DNA of 64,000 bases, taken from the sequence record NC_048731.1. The stretch is one strand, 5' to 3'. The notes under the pieces were generated by a model. The model searched no databases. It saw only the letters and a list, made by a program, of their open reading frames with translations, and had not been told where the DNA came from. Origin of the DNA: Escherichia phage fp01. The first letter of the stretch is position 1, and each line of letters begins with the position of its first letter. Shown here one piece after another: positions 5,309-34,750 of the stretch. Both the position numbers and the translations under genes were made by a program.

Positions 5309-5379
5309 ATATACATAAATTTGAGAGAGAAAGTTTCGGATTGATAAGAAAGTCCGAAGCAGAAAAATAAAAATTTTAG

Positions 5380-5409
5380 TTGCTAAATTCTCTCGAAATC
5401 TAGTATAAT
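5380..5409 (+). promoter_or_regulatory. sigma70 promoter (T5 early type), tandem copy
   Basis: 'TTGCTA' + 18 nt + 'TATAAT' followed by 'ATATACATAAATTCGAGGAG'; near-duplicate of the promoter at 5280-5308. Confidence 0.45.
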
Positions 5410-5793
5410 ATATACATAAATTCGAGGAGAAAACAAAAATTAAATTCTTCGATTATGAAAAGCTATACTTACTAGCTAGAGGAAATTCCGACCTAATTAT
5501 TAAGCTATTCAAAAGAATGCTTACAGAGCCTGATGCTCACCAACTATTGGTCGGTTCCTCATTCATTTTGAATGAATCAACTATTGTTGATAATCCAAAT
5601 AAATTGTCTAATAGACAACTGGCAGAATATCTAGGAATTTTAAGTCTACGAAATTATGCCGAATACAAGTTTACAAACGATCCTAGTTTGGACATGCAAT
5701 ATGTTCCAGTATGGATACCACGTTTAGTAATCGACACTAACCCACTAATCGCAATTAACAAATCGAAATTAATCTTTAAAGAGGAAATAAAAT

Positions 5794-6603: not shown

Positions 6604-7581
6604 ATGAGAATATTATTTAGTGCTGATCATCATATCAAACTAGGACAAGATAAAGTTCCAAAGGAATGGCAGAAGCGTCGCTTCCTGATGCTAGGAGAAC
6701 GGTTAAATGATATATTCCATAATCATAACTGTGATCTTCATATTGCTGGTGGTGATATACTTGATGTTGCCGACCCGTCGTCAGAAGAAATAGAACTGCT
6801 TGAACAGTTCATGTCAAGACTTGACCATCCAGGCAAAATCTTTACTGGAAATCATGAAATGTTAACTAAAACCATTTCATGTCTATATCATTATGCAGGA
6901 GTTATTAATAAAGTAACGAGCGGGAAGTGGGAAGTAATTACCAAACCATATCGTTCCCCTGAATTTGATATTGTTCCATATGACGAAATCCATAAATCTA
7001 AGTGGAAACCATCTGAATCAAAACTATGTTTCACGCATGTTCGTGGTGAAATCCCTCCACATGTAAAACCAGAAATTGATCTAACTAAGTATAACTGTTA
7101 TGATACTGTAATTGCTGGCGATTTACATTCTTATACTAATAGCCAGACTATCGGATCTACTAGACTTCTCTACCCAGGGTCTCCATTAACTACATCGTTC
7201 CATAGAGAACGCACAAAAGGTACAAATGGTTGTTTTATCGTTGATACCGACACATTAAAAGTAGAATGGATTGAACTCGGTGATTTACCACAACTGATTC
7301 GTAAAACAATCGGAGCCGGTGAAGAGATGGAACCTAGTGATTATGATCGTGTAGTATATGAAGTTACTGGTGACGTTGTTCAATTAAAGTCAATCAAAGA
7401 CTCTGATTTATTAGATAAGAAGATTAACCATCGAGTTACTAAAGACGCTAAGTTAAATCTTGTCGATCTTGATATGTTAGGTGAACTTGAACTTTACTTC
7501 CGTGAAGTCGAGAAGCTATCTCAAGGCGACATTGATAGAATCTTGGCTAGAGCTGCGAAATATGTCAAAGATTACAATTAA
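6604..7581 (+). CDS. Mre11/SbcD-like metallophosphatase nuclease (T5 D13-like)
   Basis: Calcineurin-like phosphoesterase motifs 'ADHH', 'GGDILD', 'TGNHE'. Confidence 0.75.
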   Translation: MRILFSADHHIKLGQDKVPKEWQKRRFLMLGERLNDIFHNHNCDLHIAGGDILDVADPSSEEIELLEQFMSRLDHPGKIFTGNHEMLTKTISCLYHYAGVINKVTSGKWEVITKPYRSPEFDIVPYDEIHKSKWKPSESKLCFTHVRGEIPPHVKPEIDLTKYNCYDTVIAGDLHSYTNSQTIGSTRLLYPGSPLTTSFHRERTKGTNGCFIVDTDTLKVEWIELGDLPQLIRKTIGAGEEMEPSDYDRVVYEVTGDVVQLKSIKDSDLLDKKINHRVTKDAKLNLVDLDMLGELELYFREVEKLSQGDIDRILARAAKYVKDYN

Positions 7582-18152: not shown

Positions 18153-20986
18153 TCCACAGACTGTTCTCCATCATCTCCTTCCGCTCTAATACGAAAATAT
18201 AGTTTTCTATTGATTCCTAGAGCATCACTATTATGAAGAGCAAAATCTGCCTTATTATACATTAATAAATAGTCATAAGTATACTGATTTTCAATACGTA
18301 CACTTCTTAGCATTCTATTCTGGGAATCATAGATTTCCAGAGTATAGAATATACTTTCTATTATATCTTCTTCTGGTATCCTATCCCAAGCTAGTTTTAC
18401 ATCTGGGCCTACAAATTCAGTTACATCCCCAGAAGCCGTATTAGTTACCCTAAAATTAGATACTACGCTTAGGTTTTTAGCAGAGTTAAGTTCTATAGAT
18501 AATGTTACTGGAGAACTTCTCCTACCATTTATATCCACAGCCCTTATTTCAAATATTGCTAAACCTGCAGGCTCTCCAATTATCTCTTGGATCATGCGTT
18601 CATTGGGATTTGTTTCTAGTTGCTGCACAATATAAGGCTCAGCATGACCGGAATGCACGATAGAGTAATAAACTACGTTATTAGTTAAACTTGGAAGCCA
18701 GGATAACTCACCATTTTTTCCTATGGAACCAACTAAACCACCAGGTGTAGGAGTATATTTAAAATCTCTAGGAGGAAGAACATTGTTACTAATATCTGGT
18801 ATATCATTACCACTATTATCTACTTGATCAGAGTTGATAAATACATCTTCCCCATACTCCTGTAGAGTAACATTTATCTTTCCTTCCCTAGAGTTTTCGA
18901 CTTCATCTACTAAAAAGTACTTCTTATCCCATCCGTAACGGTCGTATGTAAATGCAATAGCATCATTAGGCTCAATACCAATGAATTGATATGGTAAAGA
19001 AAATGAGAGGGTTCTAGAATACCTAGATTTCTTAAGTTCTCTGTCTGCAAAACTTCTAGCAGTATAGTAGTTAGTTATATTTGCAAAAGATAATTGTAAT
19101 TTTTTGTCTAAATTTTTATCTTGCTCTTTATATCTAGAGTTATAAAAGGTAATAGAGTTAGTTTTCCAGCTAAGAGCTGGGTCTACGATAGATGCTTGAA
19201 CTGAGTTGAATTTATTTCTACCAGTAGTATCTGATAGCTCTAAATCACCATAAGTATCCAGAAAATTAATTTCTAATGGAGTATTAGAATATTTTTCTAC
19301 AGTAATCCTATATTGACCCGATAAGTTGTTAATAGCCCCACCGTAGGATTCTAGTAAACCTTGAACATTTTTAAATACTGATTCAGATGTATCTAGAATA
19401 GTATTCATTTGTACTATTTGTCTATTTTCTGCTAATGGATCAGTCCACCCAACATATCTCCAGTATGGCTGCCAGGATACTTGGTAGGATTCATCTATAA
19501 TATCTAGGATAGCAGCTTCTTGTACCAATTGTTGGAGAGGGAACTGATCAATAGCAATGTTTGCACCATACCTATCTGAAGTTAAGTAGTCAAGTGTTTG
19601 CCAAATACCATTTAAACTAGTACTATTAGCAGTTACTCTACCATCAGAATGGTAGATTTTTATCTTCTTACCCTGAATCTCAGCACTAACTTCTGGAATC
19701 TCAGTTCTATTTTCATTAATAGTAAAGCGTACTACCGCGTATGCAGTATCTAATAGTTTATATCTAGCATCCCAGTACTCAGGCCCATTACCGTTCATAC
19801 TTTGGAGATAGAACCCACGCTCCTTCGCTATATTTACTAATACTTCAGAAGCCGTTTGATCAGCTTTTCCATGATAAGTCCAAATCCTTATATCACCATT
19901 ACCATCGTTATATTTATATTCCTGGCCATGCACAGAAGGACTACTAGAAGACATTCCTGATGCTATTCTCTGCATGGTGTCTCCTGCTACTTTTTTAACA
20001 CCGAAACAGGTTCTAGCAGAGCTATCATTAGAGTCCATACAAATCATAGGGTTATCCCCGAAGGAAAAGTCAAGAAAACCGTCTATCTCTCCTTCAGCAA
20101 AAGCATATACTACGTAAACTATATTAGGATTGTGTAATTCCGTATCCGCAAAAATAGGTATTCCCGGTATTTTCTGTACACCATAAACTACTGGTATATA
20201 CTTAGCAGCAAGGTTAAAATCTATATCTACTTCTTTAGTAACAGTCTCATAATACTTTTTAAGACTATAACTTCTAGATAGTCCAAATAGCTTTTTCTTA
20301 GACTTTAGCTTGTATCTTTCTTCCTGTACCTGATACTTTGCTAGAATAGAGATACTTTTATTGGCGTGAAAGAAACCGTAGTCTTCTTGGTACTCAAGTC
20401 TTTTAGCCCCATTAGATGGAAGTAATTGTCCTGCTACAACTTCAAGCCCTCTATGAGAAGCATCATCAGTAAATCTACCATTAACCCTATCAAAATCATA
20501 GAATTGGTTAGAACAATTCCAAGTAATTGTGGAGGTTCCAACTCCCGAAGTACTAATATTATCCTTAATACCTCCACCAGTAATTCTACCTCTAAAGTAT
20601 AATAAAGGCCCATTTGTGTCTGGGTCTACAGGTAAAATAGAACCATCCTCTGTAATAATTGCTTGATGAATTGATACTAGTCTATCTAAAAAGGACACAC
20701 CATTCTGCACTAATTTCAGTACTTCATCCTGCGCTGTACCTGTAATAGTAAAAGATAGGCTGCCAATAGATAAATCTCTATTTTGTTTATGTGTGCTAAT
20801 AGACTTAACTTTACCGGCCTGGTACAGAATACCGTTATATAGTACATCTCTAAAATAGTCAGTTAAGTAAATAAAAGCAGTACTAGTACCAGTAGAGCCG
20901 GGTAATTCTAGAGAAATTAGACTAGCAGTTTTTATTCTGCTATTATTTTTTAAGTAGTTTCTAGCACTATCTAATATTTTTTTCAT
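18137..20986 (-). CDS. baseplate hub protein (T5 pb3-like, 949 aa)
   Basis: Large protein directly after Dit-like gene; size matches T5 pb3 as recalled. Confidence 0.55.
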   Translation of the reverse strand: MKKILDSARNYLKNNSRIKTASLISLELPGSTGTSTAFIYLTDYFRDVLYNGILYQAGKVKSISTHKQNRDLSIGSLSFTITGTAQDEVLKLVQNGVSFLDRLVSIHQAIITEDGSILPVDPDTNGPLLYFRGRITGGGIKDNISTSGVGTSTITWNCSNQFYDFDRVNGRFTDDASHRGLEVVAGQLLPSNGAKRLEYQEDYGFFHANKSISILAKYQVQEERYKLKSKKKLFGLSRSYSLKKYYETVTKEVDIDFNLAAKYIPVVYGVQKIPGIPIFADTELHNPNIVYVVYAFAEGEIDGFLDFSFGDNPMICMDSNDSSARTCFGVKKVAGDTMQRIASGMSSSSPSVHGQEYKYNDGNGDIRIWTYHGKADQTASEVLVNIAKERGFYLQSMNGNGPEYWDARYKLLDTAYAVVRFTINENRTEIPEVSAEIQGKKIKIYHSDGRVTANSTSLNGIWQTLDYLTSDRYGANIAIDQFPLQQLVQEAAILDIIDESYQVSWQPYWRYVGWTDPLAENRQIVQMNTILDTSESVFKNVQGLLESYGGAINNLSGQYRITVEKYSNTPLEINFLDTYGDLELSDTTGRNKFNSVQASIVDPALSWKTNSITFYNSRYKEQDKNLDKKLQLSFANITNYYTARSFADRELKKSRYSRTLSFSLPYQFIGIEPNDAIAFTYDRYGWDKKYFLVDEVENSREGKINVTLQEYGEDVFINSDQVDNSGNDIPDISNNVLPPRDFKYTPTPGGLVGSIGKNGELSWLPSLTNNVVYYSIVHSGHAEPYIVQQLETNPNERMIQEIIGEPAGLAIFEIRAVDINGRRSSPVTLSIELNSAKNLSVVSNFRVTNTASGDVTEFVGPDVKLAWDRIPEEDIIESIFYTLEIYDSQNRMLRSVRIENQYTYDYLLMYNKADFALHNSDALGINRKLYFRIRAEGDDGEQSVEWASI

Positions 20987-21597
20987 AGACTTTCCCGTAA
21001 ATTTAATGAGATGTTGGAATATGTTCCGTTATTATTTAGTGTAGATCCAAAAGCATCACCATTCATGAGTTTTGTTCTAAATAGTATTCCATTAAATACT
21101 GGCTTCTCCGCTCCAGTAGTAGTTATAAATAAATCAGGGTATAAGTTTATAGACCATGTATTACCTGATTTGTTAAATGATGTTATTTTATATACTTTTG
21201 GGTGGTTAGACAGCTTAAATAGATCCCCCGGTTTTGGAGTACCTGTAAGAAGTCCTTTTGTATCCATAGTTACATTAGAACCCTTCTGTCCAGCAGGTAT
21301 ATTTACTAGACTAGTATTACCTCTAACTCTAAAAGCTTCGTATTGGGGTAATATAACATCTATGTAACCACCAGTCCTTTTGTATTCTAGAATAAAAGCA
21401 TCTAGAACACTATATTCATCTGGAAATAATTCTGGATAAGAAATATTTATACCCCAGTATTGAGCAGATACCTTAACTTCGTTAACTTTACCATTTGGTA
21501 ACTCATCACGAATTACTGGGTCATTATCAATCAGGTTAACACTTTCGAATCCTAAGCCTGAAAGTTCTGGATTCGTGTATGGGTCTGGTAATCTCAT
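20983..21597 (-). CDS. distal tail protein Dit (T5 pb9-like, 204 aa)
   Basis: Immediately downstream of the tape measure gene; size matches T5 pb9. Confidence 0.5.
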   Translation of the reverse strand: MRLPDPYTNPELSGLGFESVNLIDNDPVIRDELPNGKVNEVKVSAQYWGINISYPELFPDEYSVLDAFILEYKRTGGYIDVILPQYEAFRVRGNTSLVNIPAGQKGSNVTMDTKGLLTGTPKPGDLFKLSNHPKVYKITSFNKSGNTWSINLYPDLFITTTGAEKPVFNGILFRTKLMNGDAFGSTLNNNGTYSNISLNLRESL

Positions 21598-21680
21598 AGT
21601 TAATTTCTCCTCTTTAATAACAATATTATAATAGTATTAGAAAATTTTATCAAGAAATTTTTATTTTTCCATAAAGAAAA

Positions 21681-21699
21681 GGAGGACTCAAAGTCCTCC
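21681..21699 (-). terminator. hairpin after tape measure gene
   Basis: 'GGAGGACT-CAA-AGTCCTCC' followed on the minus strand by T-rich 'TTTTCTTTATGGAAAAATAAAAA'. Confidence 0.5.
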
Positions 21700-21706
21700 T
21701 CCAGTT

Positions 21707-24700
21707 TTAAGAATTTCCTAATGTTTTCAGACTAGCACCGTTCTCATTCAGAGCTAATTCTACTGCGTCTCTTAGAGCACTACTATTACTAGAAGCAAAC
21801 TCTCTAAAACTTGCAGCATCCATAGCACTAATATTCAGGATGATAGGTCTTCCTGAAGTTGAGTTAGATGAGGTTTTTAGCTCATCATTAGGTGTAGCTT
21901 TCATAGGAACCATAGGGGTAACTACTTCTGTACCATGCTCACCCATTTGATAACTAACCCCAGGGTACATATTACCGCCTTCAGCACGAGGAACGAAAGA
22001 GTTAGCACCACCTATACCTTTATCGCCTCTGATATAAGATAGTTCACCTGCATTAGCAGACATGGACACATCTATATTCTTCTGACGTTCTCCTAAGGTT
22101 AGGTAACTAGTTGTATCCGCTCCAGAATCTGCAATAGAAGACATACCAGATGCAGAAGATGCTTGAGCAAGAGCTAAGGCACCTGCTAAACCTGCCGCCA
22201 CCATCAAAGGAATAGAGAACGGGTACGGTACAGCTGTCGCCGCTTGCATTACAGCTACTGCAGTTTGGATGATGATCTGCTTCTTAGCTGCGTCTTGTTG
22301 AATCTTCAGTTTTTCAGCTTCCAACTTCTTCAACTTAGCTTTAGATGCTTCTGATTTACCATCACGTTTCTGCTCTGCTGCAATAGCCTGATCAATTGCA
22401 CTAACCTGCTGACTAGTACTATACTGAATCACAGAAGATACAGCTTGCATACCTGCTGCGATCGTGGAAGTAGTATCTAGTGATTTCATTGAGAACTGAA
22501 TCATAGCATTAGTTAAATTACCCATGCTTTGAGCCACAGCAGTTGCTTCTGAGTTTAGCTCAGATAACTTAGAGATTGCCTGATCATAAGAGGCCATCCT
22601 ATTTCCCATATCAGCAAAATCTTTGTCTTTTCCAGATAGTCCAGTTGTAGGAGTATACACAGCACCTAAAGAAGACCCAACAGAAGCTTGCATTTGAGCA
22701 TTACGTTGTGCTGTTAAAGCCGCTATCTGAGCCCTTGTCTTGGCTATTTCAGCATTCCAACGCATCTGCTCATTAGCGTTACCTTTAGTAAGTTCCTTCA
22801 TCTGAGTATAAAAGTCTAACTGCATTTCCATTTTTTGCATTTCCCCTGCCAGAGGGAACATTGAAGTTAGAGTATTTTCAAAGGCTTCCTGCCTTTTACT
22901 GGTCATTTCAGCTTGCTGATCTTGGCGGAATTTCCAGATTTCACGTTCAATTTGGGCTTGAGCACGTCTTGATTGTTCAGCTTCTTTGTGTTTATCTGCT
23001 TGCTTAGAGTACCACTCATACTTTTCTTTTTCAATGGTCAATTCAAGATTTAACTGTGCTAGACGATACTGAGTATCTGTCATAGTACGGTTATTTAAGA
23101 GAGCTATCTCACGATCTACACCCAGGATTTTATCTGTGTAATCCTTGACCTTCTTCTGAGCTTCCATACCCTGATTGGTAAGTTTAAGTTTCTCCAGCTG
23201 AATTTTTTCAATTTCTTTCTCAACAGCTTTATTTCCCTGGTTTGTTTGAAGAACACGGCGTAAAGCAGCTTCTTGCTCTTCTAACTGTTGCAGCTCTAAA
23301 CGTCTACCAGCTTCCTGAGCTTTTTCTTTATCCTTAGTTTGGTTATATACATCAGCTATCTTCTGTTGAACTGCTAACTGGTTCTTAGTCTCATTACCAG
23401 TTAGTTTAACGTACTCAGATAAGGCCTGAGACGCAGTTTTCATTTCAGACAGAGTATTGTAACCTAGGTTAAGATTTTTAACGTATTCATCAGCACTCTT
23501 ACCAGTACCTAGAGATAGAGATTCTATGTTTTTTATAGCATCTGCTAAAGTAGCACTAGTTTTAGCAGCAGTATCTGTATTCTGAGCAACGTTCTGTATA
23601 TCATTAGCTAAGTCACTAGCAGTTTTCTTAGTCTGATTGTACGCTTTCTGCTGCTCAGTTAATCCTTTTAATACAGTAGAGTTAAAATCGTATACAGCAT
23701 CAGGATCAGTAGTGTCTCTTTGTAGATTAATTTGCTTCTGAAACTCTGGACTAGCCTTTGCAGCAGCAGCCCCAGCAGCTTGATACGCTGATTTCCAAGC
23801 ATTTAGGTTCTCTGTAGAATCCTCTACTTCCTTACCAAGTCTAGTTACTTGTAGACCCATAGCTGCAGTTTCTGCTACAAATTGCTTATTGGCCTCCGAA
23901 GCACCTGCTGCTGCAAGACCAACAGGAATACCTTCACCAACTTGACGTATAGCTAGTTTTGTATAGAAATCTGCTTGTTCCATTCGTTTATCGAACTCAG
24001 ATTTTAGCTTATTACGCTTATCAAGAGATTCCTTATACATATCTAGAGCTTTATTATAGCCTTCTTCAGAGGCAGCTAAACTTAAAGCAACAGCACCAAC
24101 ATTGGTAGGGTCTATCTGTCTATTAGTTTTTTCTTGGGCCCTAGCTGCTTCAGCAGATATAGAAGCCTGAGATGTATAAAATACTGTGTTGATAGCATCA
24201 ATTACTGGCCCTAAATATTTAGCAGCAGCTTGTTGTATTTTTCTTAGTGCAGCATCTGCATTAGCAGCAAATTGCTCCCACGGAGTTGCACGTAGTACTT
24301 CATCTAGGTAGCCAAATCGCTTAGTAGATTCAGCAATTACCGCGTTAGCGTATGCTTGTTGTTTCTGGAAGGTAGTAAGACTATTAACATTATATGTTAT
24401 ACCTGTGTTTGCAGCATTTAACTGTTTAACATAATCAGCGTATGCGTCATTAAGACGGATAGTGACACCAAGTTCATCCAGAAGTTCGATTTCTTGTTTA
24501 GATACGCCCTTAATTACACGGTTAAGTGCATCAGTCATATCAACGCCAAGAACAGCAGCCGCACGACGAGCTACTAAACCAAATTTATTAAGTTGTTCGG
24601 CATCAAATCCATAAGCGGATGCTGAAGACGCCTGTCTCATTGCTTCCTCAAAAGAAATAGCATATCCAGCAGCTTCTTGTAGCGATCTAGCAAGGGTCTG

Positions 24701-25390
24701 AACAGGAGTACCTGTCTGAGTACCTACTATAACACCAAATTTTTCTAGACGATTTAGCTGATCACCTAGTTTAAGTTGTTCAAATGCTGATTGCAAAACG
24801 AAGATGTTGGAAGCAAGAGCTGCGTACATAATAGGTAGACTACCACCGATCTTAGCCATTGCCGCAAAATCACGAGTTGCACCACGTGCTGAACCAGAAG
24901 TATTACCAATAGCTCTAGAAGCTCTACCAGCGGCACCAGCAGTATCATTAAAACCCCTAGCTGTGCCACCTAATGCTCTATTAGTATCATATAATCTATC
25001 CTGGACTTTTTCTGTTGCAGCTGCAACATCATTACCCATTGTTTTAACAGATCTAGAAACTCCATCGAATCCAATTTCTAGTTTATCTGTTACTTCAATG
25101 AGCTGGATAGCCAGGTAATCTAGCTTATCACCAATACCGTCAATGGATTTAGTGATACCAGCCATACCCCTACTAGCTTGCATTTTAGTAAGACTTTTCG
25201 CTGCTCTGTCTGCTGCCCTCTCAATGGAATAAAGAGTTTTGGGCATTTTACCTAACTGCTCATTTGTCAGTTCGGAAGCAGCAGCAGCGTTTTCTAACGC
25301 ATCAGATACGTTTTCAATAGACTTTGCAGTACGAGTTGCCCCCTTCTGTTTAACGTCTATTAATAATTCTCGTATTAGCTTATCAGTCAT
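21707..25390 (-). CDS. tail tape measure protein (T5 pb2-like)
   Basis: 1227 aa, Ala/Gln-rich, extended coiled-coil-like composition; largest gene of the tail module. Confidence 0.85.
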   Translation of the reverse strand: MTDKLIRELLIDVKQKGATRTAKSIENVSDALENAAAASELTNEQLGKMPKTLYSIERAADRAAKSLTKMQASRGMAGITKSIDGIGDKLDYLAIQLIEVTDKLEIGFDGVSRSVKTMGNDVAAATEKVQDRLYDTNRALGGTARGFNDTAGAAGRASRAIGNTSGSARGATRDFAAMAKIGGSLPIMYAALASNIFVLQSAFEQLKLGDQLNRLEKFGVIVGTQTGTPVQTLARSLQEAAGYAISFEEAMRQASSASAYGFDAEQLNKFGLVARRAAAVLGVDMTDALNRVIKGVSKQEIELLDELGVTIRLNDAYADYVKQLNAANTGITYNVNSLTTFQKQQAYANAVIAESTKRFGYLDEVLRATPWEQFAANADAALRKIQQAAAKYLGPVIDAINTVFYTSQASISAEAARAQEKTNRQIDPTNVGAVALSLAASEEGYNKALDMYKESLDKRNKLKSEFDKRMEQADFYTKLAIRQVGEGIPVGLAAAGASEANKQFVAETAAMGLQVTRLGKEVEDSTENLNAWKSAYQAAGAAAAKASPEFQKQINLQRDTTDPDAVYDFNSTVLKGLTEQQKAYNQTKKTASDLANDIQNVAQNTDTAAKTSATLADAIKNIESLSLGTGKSADEYVKNLNLGYNTLSEMKTASQALSEYVKLTGNETKNQLAVQQKIADVYNQTKDKEKAQEAGRRLELQQLEEQEAALRRVLQTNQGNKAVEKEIEKIQLEKLKLTNQGMEAQKKVKDYTDKILGVDREIALLNNRTMTDTQYRLAQLNLELTIEKEKYEWYSKQADKHKEAEQSRRAQAQIEREIWKFRQDQQAEMTSKRQEAFENTLTSMFPLAGEMQKMEMQLDFYTQMKELTKGNANEQMRWNAEIAKTRAQIAALTAQRNAQMQASVGSSLGAVYTPTTGLSGKDKDFADMGNRMASYDQAISKLSELNSEATAVAQSMGNLTNAMIQFSMKSLDTTSTIAAGMQAVSSVIQYSTSQQVSAIDQAIAAEQKRDGKSEASKAKLKKLEAEKLKIQQDAAKKQIIIQTAVAVMQAATAVPYPFSIPLMVAAGLAGALALAQASSASGMSSIADSGADTTSYLTLGERQKNIDVSMSANAGELSYIRGDKGIGGANSFVPRAEGGNMYPGVSYQMGEHGTEVVTPMVPMKATPNDELKTSSNSTSGRPIILNISAMDAASFREFASSNSSALRDAVELALNENGASLKTLGNS

Positions 25391-25413
25391 GTTTTATTTT
25401 TCCCAATAAAAAA

Positions 25414-25438
25414 GGCTCTGGGCAAATCACCCAGAGCC
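25414..25438 (-). terminator. hairpin plus T-run upstream of tape measure gene
   Basis: 'GGCTCTGGG-TGATTTG-CCCAGAGCC' (minus strand) followed by 'TTTTTTATTGGGAAAAATAAAAC' then ATG. Confidence 0.55.
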
Positions 25439-25473
25439 AAGCCTCATCGTGGAACGCCCATTGGAGGAAACTT

Positions 25474-25842
25474 TTATCGTGCACGAGATTTAGCATGTGG
25501 TTTAACGTTAGGAATCCTTCCGTTTTGCGGTTTATGCTTCTCAGCACGTTTACGTGCAGCGTCTACAGCTTTAGCATCAAATATATTGATAATGTGTAGA
25601 ACAAATTCTTTTTCTATAGGATCAGTAATCCCATAAATATCAAATAAAACACCTAATGCAGCCTTATCCTTACCTATAAAAATAGGAAAGTCACCCGGTA
25701 TGAAACAATCAATTAGACTGTTATAAATATTCATACTAATAGATACAATAGGTGGAAAATCTTCGAGTTCAACGGGCATAGCCTTTGGATCAGGTTCTAT
25801 ACCCATTGACTCGCAAAGTATTAAATATTGTTGTTTAGTCAT
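25474..25842 (-). CDS. hypothetical tail assembly protein
   Basis: 122 aa, between tail tube and tape measure genes where chaperones usually lie. Confidence 0.35.
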   Translation of the reverse strand: MTKQQYLILCESMGIEPDPKAMPVELEDFPPIVSISMNIYNSLIDCFIPGDFPIFIGKDKAALGVLFDIYGITDPIEKEFVLHIINIFDAKAVDAARKRAEKHKPQNGRIPNVKPHAKSRAR

Positions 25843-25903
25843 TTTAGATGCTGAGCTTTTAATACATTTGTCTGCAAAATCAGCAACAGCATCTAGGAGT
25901 TCT

Positions 25904-26308
25904 TTACGCTTTTGGGCTACGAAAAGTGTCTAAGTGGAACACTGTCTGGTTGATCCAAGAATCAAACGCAGCAGAGTTCTGCATGAGCATTACAGCATTA
26001 TCGCGGCTAAAAGGAACCTCAGTAGCAGGATCAGCATCTGTTTCAATCAGCATCAGTTTTTCAACGTCACCAACAGTTAAGCCAGTCCAACCTTTAATAG
26101 CTGCGTCAACAAAGGCTTCAATGAACTTATCATCATCCTGCACCTGAATCAAAGTACCGTTAACCCATTCATCGCGTTTAGCAGAAGAAATAACACGTTT
26201 AGAGGTAGCACGAGACATATAGTTAAGTTCTAGTTTAAAGTTCGGCATACCTGGGTAGGAAAGAGTAATAGTACGAGTATCAAGAGTAATATCTTTTAAA
26301 TTAATCAT
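25904..26308 (-). CDS. putative tail assembly chaperone
   Basis: 134 aa, position only. Confidence 0.35.
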   Translation of the reverse strand: MINLKDITLDTRTITLSYPGMPNFKLELNYMSRATSKRVISSAKRDEWVNGTLIQVQDDDKFIEAFVDAAIKGWTGLTVGDVEKLMLIETDADPATEVPFSRDNAVMLMQNSAAFDSWINQTVFHLDTFRSPKA

Positions 26309-27204
26309 TTTTTAATTTCTCCAAAGAAATCTATTCTCACTGGGTCTGAAGAAGCAGTAGGTATAATATCCCACTCAACTCTATACACATCTGAGAACTC
26401 TAGGCGTTTTGTAATACGTGCTGAAGGAAAATCTATAGAAATATTATTATTTCTTATCGTTAAAGGTACATCTGTCTCCGGTTCTATATTATAAACCATA
26501 TCTCCTGCAAAACGTTTTAAGTAGTATAGAGAAATGGTTGCCGAAGCATTCATTTCAGTTACATAGGCTCTTTTATTATTATAAATTTTATTTATATCAA
26601 AAACACTCTTATCCTCTCTCCAGGAGCACTGCTGTTGGAAAGATAAAGAGGCAGAAATAAGACCGGGTAAGATGCTGCCATTAGTAGAAGCCATTACTGG
26701 GCTGTAAGACATTACTTCACCCTGTATAATAGAAGCTGCTTCTCTATATGTAGATACTTCTGAGAATTTCCCAGACTCAATACCAACATTAAGAATTGGT
26801 ATGTTCTTATCTAAAGAAAAATCTACTGTAGATACATAACAGTTTTCAAAATATACACAGTTATTATCTTTGTTTACTATATAGATATTGAACATAATAG
26901 GTTCAATATTACTACTATATAGCGGGAGTAAGAAAGTATTACCTTTTCTATCAAAACCTAACCATTCAAAGAAGTTAGCCTCAGTAAGAGTATTACTGAA
27001 ATTTACTGCTAAAGAGATAGAAGAGGGGGTTTGAGCATTTATAATAGAGTCTGCATAGTTAGTTCTACGATGAACAGTCCTACGAAGAGTCTTGAATTCC
27101 TCGTAGGAAGTCTGTATATCATAGTTTGATAGGGCATCAAAATGAAATGCCCTACCATCATACTCAACTATAACTTTTGACTCTCTCATTAGAGAGTAGT
27201 ACAT
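26305..27204 (-). CDS. hypothetical tail protein
   Basis: 299 aa directly downstream of the major tail gene. Confidence 0.4.
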   Translation of the reverse strand: MYYSLMRESKVIVEYDGRAFHFDALSNYDIQTSYEEFKTLRRTVHRRTNYADSIINAQTPSSISLAVNFSNTLTEANFFEWLGFDRKGNTFLLPLYSSNIEPIMFNIYIVNKDNNCVYFENCYVSTVDFSLDKNIPILNVGIESGKFSEVSTYREAASIIQGEVMSYSPVMASTNGSILPGLISASLSFQQQCSWREDKSVFDINKIYNNKRAYVTEMNASATISLYYLKRFAGDMVYNIEPETDVPLTIRNNNISIDFPSARITKRLEFSDVYRVEWDIIPTASSDPVRIDFFGEIKK

Positions 27205-27208
27205 TTAA

Positions 27209-28618
27209 TTAGCCACCAGAACTAGTAACTGTAATGCTCTTAGTACCTTCTACACCAGAACCATCTTTAGCAACAGCTTTAACAGTAACCTCTCCAGTCT
27301 TAGTAGTATCCGCAGTTAATAGACCAGATTCTGGATCAATTGTAGCTGCATCACCACTAGAAATAGACCAAGTTACAGCACTATTAGTAGCGTCAGGCGG
27401 AGTTACTTCAACAGACATCTGTAAAGTATTGCTATTCTCCACTGAAGTGACATTACCAGCAGATTTAACTGTGATTGATTCAACTAGTTTTGGTGGAGTT
27501 TTAGCGCCATCTCCTGTAGCAATCAGATTAGCCACAGTGGTTTTAGTATACTTGTTAGAGAAACCAAGATAACCCTCATCACCCGTATCCAAATCTGTAG
27601 GGATAGCTTTAAACTCTACTGAAGTACCAAGTACATCATCAGTCTCAATAGTAGGAATGTTAACATGCGCCTGTTTAGCAACTAACACAGCTGCCGGACG
27701 TTCATCATCGTATTCACCACCAAGGATAAGTGCAATCTCAAACTTGTTAACTACCTTAAGAGTTTTAATTAGATCTTTATATAGCTCCATAGATCCTAGA
27801 GCTTTATCGTTAAGGTAAGCTGTCAGAGAACCAGTTAGTTCAAATGCGCCAGTAAATGAACCGATCGGAATATTTACACGGGACATAATATTCGGGGTTA
27901 GATACGTGATGTTATTATTAATGGTGAAAGTACCACCAGTAATAGGGATATCATATGCCTTATCAGAATCCATATCCTTAATTTTCAGGATAGTCAATTT
28001 GTTCTTGATATAAGAACTCTGAATAGTCATATAAGTTTCATCATCAATACCTACCTCATCTGGATCAAATGGTTGCGCATCCAGAGGAATAAGCTGATTA
28101 CCATTACCAGACCAAGTTACACGACCAATATCCTCAATATCAACGTTAACTTCTGCCTGGTTGATCTGGCAAGAGTCGATGTAACTCCATGCTTTGTCAG
28201 TCAGGATGTAGATATGCAGCATTGCCAGTTCGTGGTACGCGTTATCTTTAAAGTTAACCATAAAATTGGTTTCGTTATTATGTGCTCCTGTATCACCTTC
28301 TAGGTTAAGAGCTTTACCACTAGAAAGAGCATGCCATAACATATAGTCAGGGACAATCTGTTTGTTAGTAGTTTTATCTTTATATGGCAGGATATAAGTA
28401 GAGAAACTCCACTCAGCCGCGTTTAAAGAGTCGTTAAAACGTTTAGAACCACGAGTTGGACGCGGACCAGCTTCATTAACAGTAATATCTGTTGAGTTAC
28501 TGTCCTGACCCCAAGAAATATCATCCTGAACTAGAATCTCTTGCGTGTTGGTCTTATCATGACCAGTCTTAACCGTAGACACGAAGATTCGAGTATTACG
28601 TAATAGTTGTAAAGACAT
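27209..28618 (-). CDS. major tail tube protein with C-terminal Ig-like domain (T5 pb6-like)
   Basis: 469 aa; C-terminal ~90 aa 'ITVKSAGNVTSVENSNTLQMSVEVTPPDATNSAVTWSISSGDAATIDPESGLLTA...' is BIG2/Ig-like. Confidence 0.7.
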   Translation of the reverse strand: MSLQLLRNTRIFVSTVKTGHDKTNTQEILVQDDISWGQDSNSTDITVNEAGPRPTRGSKRFNDSLNAAEWSFSTYILPYKDKTTNKQIVPDYMLWHALSSGKALNLEGDTGAHNNETNFMVNFKDNAYHELAMLHIYILTDKAWSYIDSCQINQAEVNVDIEDIGRVTWSGNGNQLIPLDAQPFDPDEVGIDDETYMTIQSSYIKNKLTILKIKDMDSDKAYDIPITGGTFTINNNITYLTPNIMSRVNIPIGSFTGAFELTGSLTAYLNDKALGSMELYKDLIKTLKVVNKFEIALILGGEYDDERPAAVLVAKQAHVNIPTIETDDVLGTSVEFKAIPTDLDTGDEGYLGFSNKYTKTTVANLIATGDGAKTPPKLVESITVKSAGNVTSVENSNTLQMSVEVTPPDATNSAVTWSISSGDAATIDPESGLLTADTTKTGEVTVKAVAKDGSGVEGTKSITVTSSGG

Positions 28619-28644
28619 TTAATTATTTTCTCCTAATCTGTAAC

Positions 28645-29130
28645 TTATCTGCGAAGTGACCTACGTGGAGGCTGATACCTCACTGTTACATTTATTTCTG
28701 CTAAACCATATGGGGCCAGTAGACCCTCATCTGTACTAACTGATGTAATGATCATATCAGTTGCCTCACATGGGAAGGTCGATCCATTAGGTTTACTAAC
28801 AGTATATTCTAAATTTCCACCTGTGTCAATAACGGTTTTTATATCCGCTACGAGTTTTTCAAGTTGCTCTTGAATGTCTGTTTTCTCTTTATCGTACACC
28901 AGGATTGGAAGTTCTAAAAACATCCACTGTTGGCCTGAAGGAAGATACTGCCCAGTTTCAGTTCCGATATGAACTGCCACATAAGGAAACTCTCGTATTT
29001 CCTCAAATTTATAAGTTTGACGAGAAACGTTTCCATATAGGTTATTAAAATATTCGTCAGGTTGAGAACCGTCCAACTGTTTAGATATACGGTCAACCAG
29101 AGCTTGTGCAATACTTGTTCTATGATCCAT
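28645..29130 (-). CDS. tail terminator / completion protein
   Basis: 161 aa immediately upstream of the tail tube gene. Confidence 0.45.
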   Translation of the reverse strand: MDHRTSIAQALVDRISKQLDGSQPDEYFNNLYGNVSRQTYKFEEIREFPYVAVHIGTETGQYLPSGQQWMFLELPILVYDKEKTDIQEQLEKLVADIKTVIDTGGNLEYTVSKPNGSTFPCEATDMIITSVSTDEGLLAPYGLAEINVTVRYQPPRRSLRR

Positions 29131-29133
29131 TTA

Positions 29134-29901
29134 TTAGGTTCCTTGATTAACCTTGATTTTATATCTAGAGTGAATCAGGTCTCTTGCAGCTTTTGCTATA
29201 GCCTCACCAATAAGTTTTTGGGGGTTTCTAGCACCAGGATAAGGTCGTAGAGATAGTCCCCTATAGGTAGATACTGCAGGGTTGAATACAGAATATGGAC
29301 GAGTCATATAATTATACGTTACGTTTAATTCAGGAGAACCTTTACTAGTTTCAGAATCACGGAGCATAACATCTTTAATTTTTAAAGAGTTTGCAAACCT
29401 GCCAGTTCTAAATTTTAATGGAGCTCCTGTCTTTTTCATATCCTTTATTAAGTACTCTTTAGCAACTATCTCTAGTATAACCTTCATATTGCTATTAGAC
29501 ACGAAACGTCCGGAAGCACCTGTTATTGCACCTGAGTATCCATCCTCTACGTCTCTAGGATCCCCAAAGTTTACCTGCACTCTGCCTGTAGAACGTTTTT
29601 TACCTACAGCGGATTTTTTGCCAGCAGTTGCCTGTATAAGATTTTCTAGAGCACCTAAATCCCCAGAAAGATCTAAACTAGAGGATACCGCTTTTAGTAT
29701 AGAGGCTGTTCTAACATCAAGAAGATCTTGTGATACGGGTTTTGAAAACTTAAAAGATACTTGAGCAACAGTACCATCTCTGGTAGGATCTTTTAACCCT
29801 GTTTCAACAGAGTATACAACAGTATTCTTATTATTTTCAGATCGTCCTGCAGTATCTAGCTGCTCTTTAATAATCTGTTTAGCTAGATCGGAAAGAGACA
29901 T
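29134..29901 (-). CDS. hypothetical head-tail joining protein
   Basis: Position between capsid and tail genes. Confidence 0.4.
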   Translation of the reverse strand: MSLSDLAKQIIKEQLDTAGRSENNKNTVVYSVETGLKDPTRDGTVAQVSFKFSKPVSQDLLDVRTASILKAVSSSLDLSGDLGALENLIQATAGKKSAVGKKRSTGRVQVNFGDPRDVEDGYSGAITGASGRFVSNSNMKVILEIVAKEYLIKDMKKTGAPLKFRTGRFANSLKIKDVMLRDSETSKGSPELNVTYNYMTRPYSVFNPAVSTYRGLSLRPYPGARNPQKLIGEAIAKAARDLIHSRYKIKVNQGT

Positions 29902-30413
29902 TATACTCTCCTATACACTTCAATAATAGTACGAATATGCTCTGGAATACCAGACTTAGTGCTATTGAAGGTTACTGTTTCACCACCAATTGTTTTAGCT
30001 TGGCGGTAATCTTGTTTGTGCCAATGATCTACTAGCATACATGCTGCAAGTTTGAGATCTTCAGGTATTGGATTGAATCCACCTTGTGTATATGCTACAT
30101 CCATATAACCTTCTGGAGGATTAAATTTGAGAAGGATAATACCGTCAGAGTATAGCTTATACTGCTCTGGGTCAATCTCATTATCATTAATCGTCACTTT
30201 AGTTACGGAAGTAGCAGATGGTGAACTCAGAAAATATTTCCTACGTGTAGGTTTTGTATTGATTAACTGGTCTACCGCATCAGCATCATCCATGCCTAGA
30301 AGGCTTGTAATCAGCGCATTGGCAGCAGTAATCATCATTTCTACACCAGACTCTAATTCAGGTCGTTTTAAACTACCGTATAATCTATAATCTTCGGCTG
30401 TGATGATTTGCAT
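29901..30413 (-). CDS. hypothetical head completion / connector protein
   Basis: Position; start follows the shared intergenic cassette. Confidence 0.4.
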   Translation of the reverse strand: MQIITAEDYRLYGSLKRPELESGVEMMITAANALITSLLGMDDADAVDQLINTKPTRRKYFLSSPSATSVTKVTINDNEIDPEQYKLYSDGIILLKFNPPEGYMDVAYTQGGFNPIPEDLKLAACMLVDHWHKQDYRQAKTIGGETVTFNSTKSGIPEHIRTIIEVYRRV

Positions 30414-30433
30414 TTATTTTTCCCAATAAAAAA

Positions 30434-30451
30434 GGAGAGCCGAAGCTCTCC
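30434..30451 (-). terminator. hairpin plus T-run after major capsid gene
   Basis: 'GGAGAGC-TTCG-GCTCTCC' (minus) followed by 'TTTTTTATTGGGAAAAATAAATG'. Confidence 0.55.
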
Positions 30452-30472
30452 TTATCGGCTGAAAAGCCTGTA

Positions 30473-31849
30473 TTAAGACGCAGCGTAAGCACCAGATACA
30501 ACGCCATTACTAAAGTAACGTTGCAGGTTAACACGCTGAGTAACGTAGTACGCATCACGCTGTTTACCAGCTTGGCGCTCACGTTCAACAGTAACAGCGC
30601 GCTGACGCGGCATTACGAAGTTATCTTTATAAACAATAACTGCGAACTCTTTATCTACTGCTTTAGCTGGGAAGTACTCAGAAACTACAACCGGCAGACC
30701 ATAAATACGACCAACCTGACCTTGCAGTTTAACAGCATCGTTACCAACCTGGGCAACATCCTGCCATTCTTCATCTTCTAGCAGGTCGTAGTAAGCATCC
30801 ATAGATACGATCAGTACCAGTTTGCTCAGTTTCAGACCATGACGGCCAAGTTTACGACGCAGTTTAGAAATAGTTTTAGCAGTTACCAGAACAGTACCAT
30901 CAGCTTTAGCTTCAGTAGTAACTTTAGCACCATCGTCTTCAGCCAGTTTCAACAGACCTTTCGGTTTACCAGTACCATCACCAGTCATAAACGCTTCTTC
31001 GATAGAAACAGCATGTGCTTCAATCAGACGCTTACGCAGCAGAGGCAGCAGAGAGAAGATTGCATCTTCTTCAGTTTCATCAGTGATGAAGGATTTAGCA
31101 GCCAGTTTGTAGGTTTTAAAACTAATTTCAGTTAAAGTACCCTTAACTTCTTCACCAACAGTAGCATCAGTACCATATGAACCAGCATCTACCCAAGTAG
31201 CTTTTCCAGCTTCAGGCTCAACCAGCATAGTAAGAATTTTGCTGGACATTGGCAGTTCATCGAACAGTGCACCAACTACTAACTCTTTCTGCAGGTCACG
31301 AAGAATACGGGTAGAGAAAATAGTTTCATAGTTTTCACTGGAAACCTGTACAGAGGAAGAGGTATTAACAGCTTTAACGTGGGCCTTACCATGTTCAGTT
31401 TCAAATACGTCCTTCTCCATCATATAGGACAGAAGAACTAGTTTTTCAACTTCATCTTCAAAAGCTTCCTGAGTACCGTACAGTGCTTTAGCTACACTAT
31501 CACCAACGAAGGAACGACCTTCACGAGCTGCTAGCAGAGATTTAATTTCATCCTGAAGACCAACAATAGTTTCCTGCTGTTTTTCTACAGTCTGTGCAAA
31601 CAGTTCTGCGCTCTTCTTGGATTTTTCATCCAGGGACTTAACCAGCTCCAGAGCTTGTTCCAGTTTCTGACGATCTTCGCCAACTGCTTTAGAAACCAGG
31701 TCATTCATACGAGCCAGTTCTTTTTCTTCCTGCTCTTTACGCATACGTTCAGCTTCGGCAGCTTTCTGAGCAGCGGTCAGACCTTCCAGAGATTTAGCCA
31801 GATCACCCAGACCAAGTTCTTCTTTCAGCTTATTAATATCAATAGTCAT
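30473..31849 (-). CDS. major capsid protein with N-terminal scaffolding (delta) domain (T5 pb8-like, 458 aa)
   Basis: N-terminal coiled-coil 'KLKEELGLGDLAKSLEGLTAAQKAAEAERMRKEQEEKE', then HK97-like body; lies after protease gene. Confidence 0.8.
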   Translation of the reverse strand: MTIDINKLKEELGLGDLAKSLEGLTAAQKAAEAERMRKEQEEKELARMNDLVSKAVGEDRQKLEQALELVKSLDEKSKKSAELFAQTVEKQQETIVGLQDEIKSLLAAREGRSFVGDSVAKALYGTQEAFEDEVEKLVLLSYMMEKDVFETEHGKAHVKAVNTSSSVQVSSENYETIFSTRILRDLQKELVVGALFDELPMSSKILTMLVEPEAGKATWVDAGSYGTDATVGEEVKGTLTEISFKTYKLAAKSFITDETEEDAIFSLLPLLRKRLIEAHAVSIEEAFMTGDGTGKPKGLLKLAEDDGAKVTTEAKADGTVLVTAKTISKLRRKLGRHGLKLSKLVLIVSMDAYYDLLEDEEWQDVAQVGNDAVKLQGQVGRIYGLPVVVSEYFPAKAVDKEFAVIVYKDNFVMPRQRAVTVERERQAGKQRDAYYVTQRVNLQRYFSNGVVSGAYAAS

Positions 31850-34636: not shown

Positions 34637-34750
34637 AGTGTTCTCCTCAACTGTATGAATATAGTATACATAATCGTATCGAATTTGTAAAGGGGATTTT
34701 AAAATGCAGGAATGGGATACCAACTGAGTAGTATCCCATCCTATACTTAT

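Follow-up and report, generated by a model that had tools for sequence, protein, structure and literature searches.

The sites described here lie in a stretch of the fp01 genome (the window, meaning the whole 64,000 nt of DNA that was analysed) that belongs, by identity and gene order, to a T5-like phage (Tequintavirus), with the late structural genes encoded by the minus strand. Three intergenic sites are considered: site A, where the major capsid gene gives way to the head-tail adaptor gene; site B, between the tail chaperone genes and the tape measure gene; and site C, which joins the end of the tape measure gene to the promoter PG25. The features at these sites, in the order in which they would be transcribed, are as follows.

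30473-31849, minus strand: major capsid gene
30457..30468, minus strand: additional small hairpin GGCU-UUUC-AGCC, past the capsid stop codon and ahead of terminator A
30432..30453, minus strand: hairpin of putative terminator A, AAGGAGAGC-UUCG-GCUCUCCUU, 20 nt past the capsid stop codon
30425..30433, minus strand: T-tail of terminator A, TTTTTTATT
30414..30424, minus strand: head-tail adaptor leader, a weak Shine-Dalgarno (SD) sequence GGGA plus the A-rich spacer AAAATAA
25474-25842, minus strand: second tail assembly chaperone gene
25439..25473, minus strand: conserved non-coding element AAGTTTCCTCCAATGGGCGTTCCACGATGAGGCTT, from the chaperone stop codon to terminator B
25414..25438, minus strand: hairpin of putative terminator B, GGCUCUGGG-UGAUUUG-CCCAGAGCC, after the second chaperone gene
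25405..25413, minus strand: T-tail of terminator B, TTTTTTATT
25391..25404, minus strand: tape measure leader, GGGA as a weak SD and then the A-rich spacer AAAATAAAAC
21678..21702, minus strand: hairpin of putative terminator C, GGAGGAGGAC-UUUG-AGUCCUCC, just past the tape measure stop codon (21707)
21654..21677, minus strand: remaining T-tail of terminator C, followed by GGAAAAATAAAAATTTC
21625..21653, minus strand: late sigma70 promoter PG25, TTGATA-17-TATAAT

An earlier, sequence-only reading of this DNA had drawn attention to an identical 22-nt string behind two of the hairpins, and the string is indeed there: the 22-mer CCTTTTTTATTGGGAAAAATAA is present in two exact copies on the minus strand (25394-25415 and 30414-30435). 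A motif search of the window found it only at A and B; these two copies were still the only matches in the window when up to 3 mismatches were permitted, and none was found in 100 shuffles. The leading CC of the 22-mer forms the final two base pairs of the stem at both A and B. The variant reported at site C is also real, because all three copies of the 10-nt core GGAAAAATAA adjoin the three hairpin/T-tails: the core occurs exactly three times on the two strands of the 64 kb window, once each at A, B and C, immediately 3' of a strong hairpin and its T-tail. A dispersed repeat or mobile cassette was rejected on anatomy, as the identity spans just 22-25 nt and there are two copies in the window; T5-like genomes in IMG/VR carry at most two copies each.

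The hairpins reported at the three sites were confirmed. They fold at -15.0 kcal/mol (A, GGAGAGC-UUCG-GCUCUCC, z -4.2), -20.3 kcal/mol (B, z -6.1) and -15.8 kcal/mol (C), values that 0 of 200 shuffles equalled at any of the sites. Their stems comprise 9-11 pairs and their loops 3-7 nt, and they are the top matches of the terminator scan. A U/T-rich tract follows directly 3' of each stem (TTTTTTATT at A and B, TTTTCTTTAT at C), and the distance from the preceding stop codon (capsid, chaperone or tape measure gene, each on the minus strand) to the start of the hairpin is about 5-35 nt. A bidirectional terminator was rejected: the A-tract sits 3' of the T-tail, not 5' of the stem, where the flanks read GCCGATAA at A, GAGGCTT at B and AAAACT at C. 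In the RefSeq record of T5 (NC_005859), the orthologues of all three hairpins are annotated as putative rho-independent terminators (101563-101586 for A, 96553-96587 for B and 92087-92113 for C), and in Klebsiella phage Sealy a terminator and a ribosome-binding site are annotated independently at both A and B. An Rfam scan of positions 21000-31000 returned no family, only sub-threshold snoRNA and sRNA noise, and a search of a paper library turned up no 3'-end mapping of T5 late transcripts and no data on 3' or 5' transcript ends at these sites. Judged by these sequence features, A, B and C would be intrinsic (Rho-independent) terminators, which is ordinary and already annotated biology; it is from the features that we infer termination itself and its efficiency.

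What follows the shared core at site C is not the next start codon, as had been supposed, but the promoter PG25 (21653-21625). It matches 11 of 12 consensus positions with a 17-bp spacer, its hexamers are invariant in 28 relatives, and it would drive the distal tail protein gene (20983-21597) and the tail genes downstream. Comparison with T5 placed the annotated 'promoter P-G 25' (92013-92087) beside site C. The late in vivo 5' ends of T5 PG25 have been mapped by primer extension (Klimuk et al. 2020, PMC7472727); experiments have validated both PG25 and PJ5 as late sigma70 promoters of that phage, whose late promoters are of the sigma70 type with normal hexamers (PMC7472727). The A-tract at C lies at about -50 to -40 of PG25, an UP-element-like position. 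Every relative compared has, at this site, a terminator with a -35/-10 promoter behind it, and an A/T-rich tract separates terminator C from the -35 hexamer in all of them; in T5, promoter P31B has a similar A-tract, AGAAAAATAAAAATTTTAG, upstream of its -35. The suggestion that the motif is a late promoter element is thus apt for C, where the A-tract stands just upstream of the PG25 -35, but not for A and B, which have no -35/-10 pair. Since GGAAAAATAA at C cannot be a translation leader, one motif has to be assigned two different roles, a point against the explanation that we prefer below.

At A and B, the terminator runs straight into a translation-initiation region, and for these two sites the proposed terminator-leader module is a reasonable description. 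The string had also been said to stand directly before start codons. It does adjoin the adaptor ATG at 30413, with GGGA 7 nt before the ATG, but the tape measure ATG at 25390 lies 3 nt beyond the 22-mer, with GGGA 10 nt before it. Both start codons are kept as N-termini in relatives, and the GGGA of A and B, which supplies each with an SD, aligns with the canonical SDs of relatives (GGAG, AGGAG, AGAGG). The SD:anti-SD energy is -4.2 kcal/mol at each site, versus -5.4 to -11.6 kcal/mol elsewhere in the late block, which makes these two the weakest of its free-standing SDs. At the same spot, the tape measure leader of relatives reads GGAAAAATT, GGAAAAAATC, GAGGTAATAAA or GGAGAAAACA. Concerted evolution of A and B was looked for and not seen; variants are confined to one copy. 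In our reading, what A and B share over 22 nt is a junction of stem end, T-tail, weak SD and A-rich spacer, of low complexity and under similar constraints in both places; common ancestry or conversion may have sharpened the match. On this reading, the 22-mer is no separate sequence-specific signal. Nor is it supported, for the hairpin and T-tail, that exact reuse implies more than a generic terminator, as had been argued: these are elements that T5 RefSeq already annotates as putative terminators, and the remainder is a weak SD and an A-rich spacer that drift independently in relatives and are missing from T5 at site B.

A hairpin and T-run after the capsid and chaperone genes, with an SD directly behind, recur among relatives to about 30% capsid identity, their stems differing in sequence. 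Phages of Pectobacterium, Klebsiella, Proteus, Providencia and Vibrio have this layout, as do many metagenomic relatives, and the site A T-tail TTTTTTATT itself is also present in Klebsiella, Pectobacterium, Proteus and Providencia relatives. When terminator B was compared among 9 divergent relatives from the Demerecviridae, compensatory changes were seen at 6 of its 11 pairs. For site A, the MAFFT alignment was too poor for covariation because stem lengths differ, and individual folds were used instead; in distant relatives the stems at A and C differ in sequence and each folds strongly. The layout is retained in the Demerecviridae with different, compensating stems, the leader sequence drifting independently at each site. 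Relatives also carry a GGC...GCC hairpin upstream of terminator A, with differing loops.

We consider it highly probable that terminators A, B and C divide the late structural block into expression tiers, together with the leaders and a restart from PG25. Terminator A would halt most transcripts past the very abundant major capsid protein, and terminator B would do so past the tail tube and chaperone genes, which would be transcribed from PJ5. The mRNA that reads through would carry, in order, the U-tail UUUUUUAUU, the weak SD GGGA, the A-rich spacer and the AUG of the low-copy adaptor or tape measure protein; given a read-through fraction and a weak SD, low transcription and modest translation initiation would combine. 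Terminator C would then close the tape measure unit, its T-tail leading into an A-tract in the position of an UP element, and PG25 would restart transcription for the distal tail genes. Termination at these sites may be partial, and the weak SD may tune protein stoichiometry. For this scheme we draw on what can be read directly at the sites: their anatomy, their orthology to annotated T5 features, the conservation of structure and the missing promoter hexamers at A and B.

The hairpins could instead serve mainly as stabilisers of mRNA 3' ends or as processing boundaries, and not as terminators, a reading that we hold to be unlikely. An endonucleolytic cut in the AU-rich stretch beyond the hairpin would then yield two mRNAs, the capsid or chaperone one being stable and the downstream one less so, with the same effect on stoichiometry. 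A single-stranded A/U-rich stretch after a hairpin is a context preferred by RNase E, and such a stretch does follow a strong UUCG-tetraloop hairpin here; it is also fitting that the hairpins come behind the genes with the most abundant products. However, a T-tail right after a GC stem defines an intrinsic terminator and is kept family-wide, whereas a pure stabiliser needs none. The two mechanisms are not mutually exclusive.

The preferred explanation, terminators joined to weak leaders, has also to be weighed against a more specific role, in which the 22-mer or the whole cassette is a sequence-specific DNA or RNA operator (for an antiterminator or a RegA-like translational repressor) that co-regulates the adaptor and the tape measure. 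This seems decidedly improbable to us, although several observations speak for it. Identity at the two sites is exact, and 11 nt of leader being the same at both is unlikely under pure drift, given the varied leaders of relatives. Across enterobacterial genera, the non-coding cassettes are better conserved than the neighbouring genes (intergenic A and B 70-84%, versus 54-76% for flanking coding DNA), and the entire A cassette is identical in Providencia phage PR1 despite a capsid that is just 57% identical; conservation of the A and B cassettes is tighter than a generic terminator strictly needs, and both this and the shared 11 nt of leader count against our main explanation. There is, in addition, an imperfect inverted repeat, TTTATT-N6-AATAAA, and an extra conserved element upstream of terminator B. 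Against the operator, T5, whose site B has no leader half, is viable; in Klebsiella, Pectobacterium, Proteus and Providencia phages the two leaders are unlike each other and change independently; and among close relatives indels of 1-7 nt affect just one copy, A or B. The inverted repeat, as an AU mini-hairpin (UUUAUU-GGGAAA-AAUAAA) showing the SD in its loop, was rejected, as its folding energy is just -1.5 to -2.1 kcal/mol, which 14-17 of 200 shuffles equalled, and is not significant. Moreover, the same 20-mer arose in an unrelated phage, on a contig where the hairpin before it is a different one and the tape measure gene after it is non-homologous, and no Rfam family matches.

The conserved element AAGTTTCCTCCAATGGGCGTTCCACGATGAGGCTT upstream of terminator B is single-copy in the window. 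Relatives that keep it include Klebsiella, Proteus and Providencia phages, even though identity in the neighbouring chaperone amounts to only 35-58%. The idea of a hidden coding sequence was rejected: the element tolerates frame-breaking 1-nt indels among close relatives and is therefore not coding, and its offset from the stop codon varies. When its pairing, local or long-range, was assessed with RNAalifold, nothing was supported beyond the stem of the terminator and a trivial one of 3 bp. To the proposal that the conserved cassettes form a dedicated cis-regulatory RNA system, bound by a phage late factor and setting read-through into, or translation of, the adaptor and tape measure genes, we give very little credence. 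Its proposed parts would be the UUCG terminator A with its leader, and terminator B with the element UUUCCUCCA...GGGCGUUCCACG...GAGG; if true, it would represent a new antitermination or translational-control module in the Demerecviridae.

A late-promoter role for A and B, whole or in part, with GGAAAAATAA as an upstream element starting the adaptor and tape measure transcripts, is very improbable: the same 10-mer does lie upstream of the validated PG25 at C and resembles the A-tract before T5 P31B, but the scan gave no promoter-like match on the minus strand at about 30380-30420 or 25360-25400, the hexamers in the PG25 register would be TCATCA/TTATAC (A) and CTGATA/TTAATA (B), the start site would fall within coding sequence, downstream of the ATG, the bases downstream vary only synonymously in relatives, pointing to coding constraint only, and the late promoters of T5 are sigma70-type with normal hexamers.

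All three sites are already annotated in T5, and the importance of the finding is mostly limited to good annotation. It does suggest how a phage of the T5 type probably balances its abundant virion proteins against the rare ones: by terminators past the capsid and tail-tube/chaperone genes, by weak leaders on the genes that follow, and by a promoter that restarts transcription. A further lesson is that an eye-catching exact repeat can be merely two functional signals joined end to end.

The closest system for comparison is T5 itself, in which the sites are orthologous and identically placed with respect to the capsid, chaperone, tape measure and distal tail genes; T5 sites A and C are almost base-for-base identical to those of fp01. 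In T5, however, the T-tail of terminator B is followed by an inserted gene, T5.141, for an endonuclease with a CapR domain, and T5 therefore has a single copy of the 20/22-mer; it lacks GGGAAAAATAA at site B, where its tape measure gene uses a different leader. Related endonuclease genes are inserted at these cassettes. T5 has no additional copies behind a terminator, and its other GGAAAAATAA match (78370-78379, plus strand) has no preceding hairpin or T-tail. AT-rich tracts (AAAAATT) at about -43 of promoters have been described in the T5-like phage AKFV33 (AKFV33 genome paper). The A-tract at site C likewise resembles the UP elements of rrnB P1 and of T5 early promoters; it is contiguous with the T-tail of the preceding terminator, and is UP-like by position.

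In T7, T-phi after gene 10, and in f1/M13, the terminator after gene VIII, are partial terminators past the major capsid or coat gene, and the lower-copy structural genes downstream are expressed by read-through. The arrangement in fp01 is similar in that an intrinsic terminator likewise comes right after the most abundant structural gene. It differs in that read-through is here what we infer, in that T5 uses the host sigma70 RNA polymerase, and in that the SD of the next gene adjoins the T-tail with no spacer between them.

Three cassettes in the late block, behind the major capsid gene (site A), the second tail assembly chaperone gene (site B) and the tape measure gene (site C), have a hairpin/T-tail anatomy, orthologues in T5 and a conserved structure. 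The 10 kb around them shares 93-97% identity with numerous Tequintavirus genomes, with Salmonella phage HMD-P4 as the top match, and the minus-strand late structural genes keep the T5 gene order.

Late structural genes of the window, in late order
First in late order, ahead of major capsid, minus strand: terminase, portal, protease
30473-31849, minus strand: major capsid
29901-30413, minus strand: head-tail adaptor
After the head-tail adaptor, minus strand: tail completion, tail terminator, tail tube
26305-27204, minus strand: 299-aa protein (relatives label it 'base plate tail tube' or minor tail protein)
25474-25842, minus strand: second of two tail assembly chaperones
21707-25390, minus strand: tape measure
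20983-21597, minus strand: distal tail protein
After the distal tail protein gene, minus strand: pb3

The second chaperone gene starts 61 nt after the end of the first and is practically without a Shine-Dalgarno (SD) sequence (-0.7 kcal/mol; upstream stretch 25843-25864); this would fit production by programmed frameshifting from the first, as in lambda G/GT. A hairpin of 13 pairs whose T-tail is poor (34710-34741, minus strand) separates the large terminase gene from its neighbour, a junction at which T5 has the endonuclease gene T5.154.

The exact 22-mer CCTTTTTTATTGGGAAAAATAA is found at 30414-30435 and 25394-25415 (minus strand), behind two hairpins as the sequence-only reading had reported; a motif search of the window returned no further copy even at 3 mismatches, and none appeared in 100 shuffles. 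The variant described at the third site is genuine, as the 10-nt core GGAAAAATAA has exactly three copies on both strands of the window, each directly behind the hairpin/T-tail of A, B or C. The initial CC of the 22-mer is part of the hairpin stems. A start codon follows the motif at A and B, as proposed for the adaptor and tape measure genes (the tape measure ATG lies 3 nt past the 22-mer), so that 'terminator-leader module' suits two of the three sites; at site C a promoter comes next.

All three hairpins are within the top four of a simple terminator scan and, folded alone, reach -15.0 (A), -20.3 (B) and -15.8 kcal/mol (C), with 0 of 200 shuffles folding equally well. In the T5 reference record NC_005859 the orthologous sites, after the major head gene, the tail assembly chaperone gene T5.142 and the tape measure gene, are labelled 'putative rho-independent transcription terminator', and in Klebsiella phage Sealy a terminator and a ribosome-binding site are annotated independently at A and B. 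The three intergenic cassettes hardly vary among 28 close IMG/VR relatives, while adjacent third codon positions vary. We also compared a distant Demerecviridae set (Pectobacterium DU_PP_V, Klebsiella Sealy, Vibrio PG07 and Achelous, Proteus Stubb, Providencia PR1, and metagenomic contigs with capsid identity as low as about 30%). A strong hairpin and T-run follow the capsid and second chaperone genes in all named genera and many metagenomic relatives, with the SD of the next gene directly behind the T-tail at A and B; a terminator and then, within about 10-25 nt, a -35/-10 promoter occupy the tape measure/distal tail junction of each relative examined. Distant taxa have other stem sequences, terminator B has compensatory double changes in 6 of 11 pairs (for example, GGCUCUGGG/CCCAGAGCC versus GGCCUAGGG/CCCUAGGCC), and several enterobacterial genera have the T-tail TTTTTTATT in common at A and B. 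Conservation of the intergenic cassette regions is 70-84%, against 54-76% for flanking coding DNA, and purifying selection on them is real. That the hairpins act as stabilisers or processing sites, a role compatible with termination, is possible but of low probability.

In Providencia phage PR1 (L066, about 7175-7213), a stretch of 41 nt that begins with terminator A and runs across the leader up to the ATG matches the window exactly, beside a capsid protein of 57% and an adaptor of about 29% identity; either unusually strong constraint or local exchange could account for this. The window has a small hairpin, GGCU-UUUC-AGCC, followed by GAUAA (30457-30468, minus strand), in the gap from the capsid stop codon to terminator A, and GGC...GCC hairpins with differing loops recur there in several genera.

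Exact reuse of the string could suggest a sequence-specific operator, which we regard as unlikely. In T5 an endonuclease gene is inserted at site B immediately behind TTTTTTATT and the tape measure gene has a different leader, ACAGGAAAACATTAGATG; T5 therefore holds only one copy. The A and B copies of relatives change independently, by 1-7 nt indels or substitutions confined to one copy. In PR1 the leader is exact at A and reads GGAAAAATATA at B, and the two leaders of Sealy differ (GGGTAAAAT versus GGAAAAAATC). The exact 20-mer TTTTTTATTGGGAAAAATAA occurs in 46 IMG/VR stretches, nearly all T5-like genomes with at most two copies each, about 5 kb apart. It is also found in an unrelated 42.6-kb siphovirus-like contig, with a different hairpin (GCCGC-UUUUAA-GCGGC) on one side and, on the other, the ATG of a tape measure gene whose product (phrog_9483) has no significant similarity to that of the window, apparently a case of convergence on one terminator-tail/leader string; in another IMG/VR contig a hairpin precedes it and AAGGAGG follows.

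Loci of the apparent convergence on the 20-mer
L114, 9512-9531: IMG/VR metagenomic contig
L144, 3124-3143: IMG/VR metagenomic contig

The single copy in T5, the independent drift and the recurrence in an unrelated contig argue that the 22-mer is not a private signal but a reachable solution of a grammar 'terminator tail + weak SD + A-rich spacer'. The claim that the cassettes are not merely a generic terminator is not upheld for the hairpin and T-tail, the three sites being orthologues of annotated T5 terminators. The A and B junctions may nevertheless be related by common ancestry or conversion.

Between T-tail and ATG at A and B, GGGA is the sole purine/G-rich patch, located 7 nt (A) or 10 nt (B) before the start codon. 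The strings that hold its position in relatives (AGAGG, GGGT, TGGAG, AGGAG or GGGG at A; GGAAAAA, GAGG, AGGTG or GGAG at B) identify GGGA as the SD; its predicted pairing with the 16S 3' end (-4.2 kcal/mol) is the weakest of the free-standing late genes (others -5.4 to -11.6). Downstream of the motif at both sites, relatives differ at synonymous positions only. Late promoters at A and B are highly improbable, since a scan after the motif at both sites found nothing like -35/-10, and the proposed late promoter element survives at site C only, which the T5 late promoter PG25 adjoins.

We infer partial termination and a stoichiometric role for the cassettes. In the most likely mechanism, host RNA polymerase on the late block would terminate efficiently, though not completely, behind the capsid gene and again behind the tube/chaperone genes; in read-through RNA, the leader of the next cistron would be U-rich and unstructured and its SD weak, keeping adaptor and tape measure protein output low. 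Transcription would stop after the tape measure gene and start again at PG25. A literature search for 3'-end mapping of late transcripts at the terminators found none.

Free-standing endonuclease-like genes lie at cassette B in T5 (T5.141; L002, 15778-16530) and, in some Salmonella phages, at cassette A (L015, 7578-8150). The two are homologous (36% identity, E 3e-35), both with a CapR homology domain and a treble-clef zinc finger, and one mobile gene family appears to insert preferentially at the terminator junctions. The host cassette A beside the insert has small changes, with one stem base pair lost and GGG changed to GG. Upstream of terminator B, after the stop codon of the chaperone gene, lies a 35-nt non-coding element, AAGTTTCCTCCAATGGGCGTTCCACGATGAGGCTT (25439-25473, minus strand; single copy in the window), with an anti-SD-like CCUCC and GAGG downstream. 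It is kept in Klebsiella, Proteus and Providencia phages and other relatives, next to a chaperone just 35-58% identical. It was rejected as coding sequence, an Rfam search matched no family, and RNAalifold supported no convincing structure.

At site C, the promoter TTGATA-17-TATAAT (21653-21625) agrees with the consensus at 11 of 12 positions. The leader that follows PG25 is ATTGTTATTAAAGAGGAGAAATTAACT-ATG (21598-21624, minus strand), which we take to be essentially the 'RBSII' paired with T5 promoters in pDS/pQE expression vectors. In the comparison with T5, NC_005859 has 'promoter P-G 25' annotated directly behind the third terminator, orthologous to site C. PJ5, a second T5 late promoter, corresponds to 28829-28801 in the window. 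Primer extension showed late transcripts from both PG25 and PJ5 in T5, whose late promoters are of the sigma70 type (Klimuk et al. 2020, PMC7472727). The A-tract of GGAAAAATAAAAATTTC, at about -50 to -40 counted back from the PG25 -35 hexamer, occupies the usual place of UP-element-like tracts; AT-rich tracts around -43 were described for promoters of the T5-like phage AKFV33 in its genome paper. The T5 promoter P31B has AGAAAAATAAAAATTTTAG at the equivalent position, and its orthologue in the window (5361-5420, plus strand), which reads AGAAAAATAAAAATTTTAG-TTGCTA and follows a hairpin, carries the same A-tract as that upstream of PG25. The cassettes are ordinary elements of T5 biology, already annotated.
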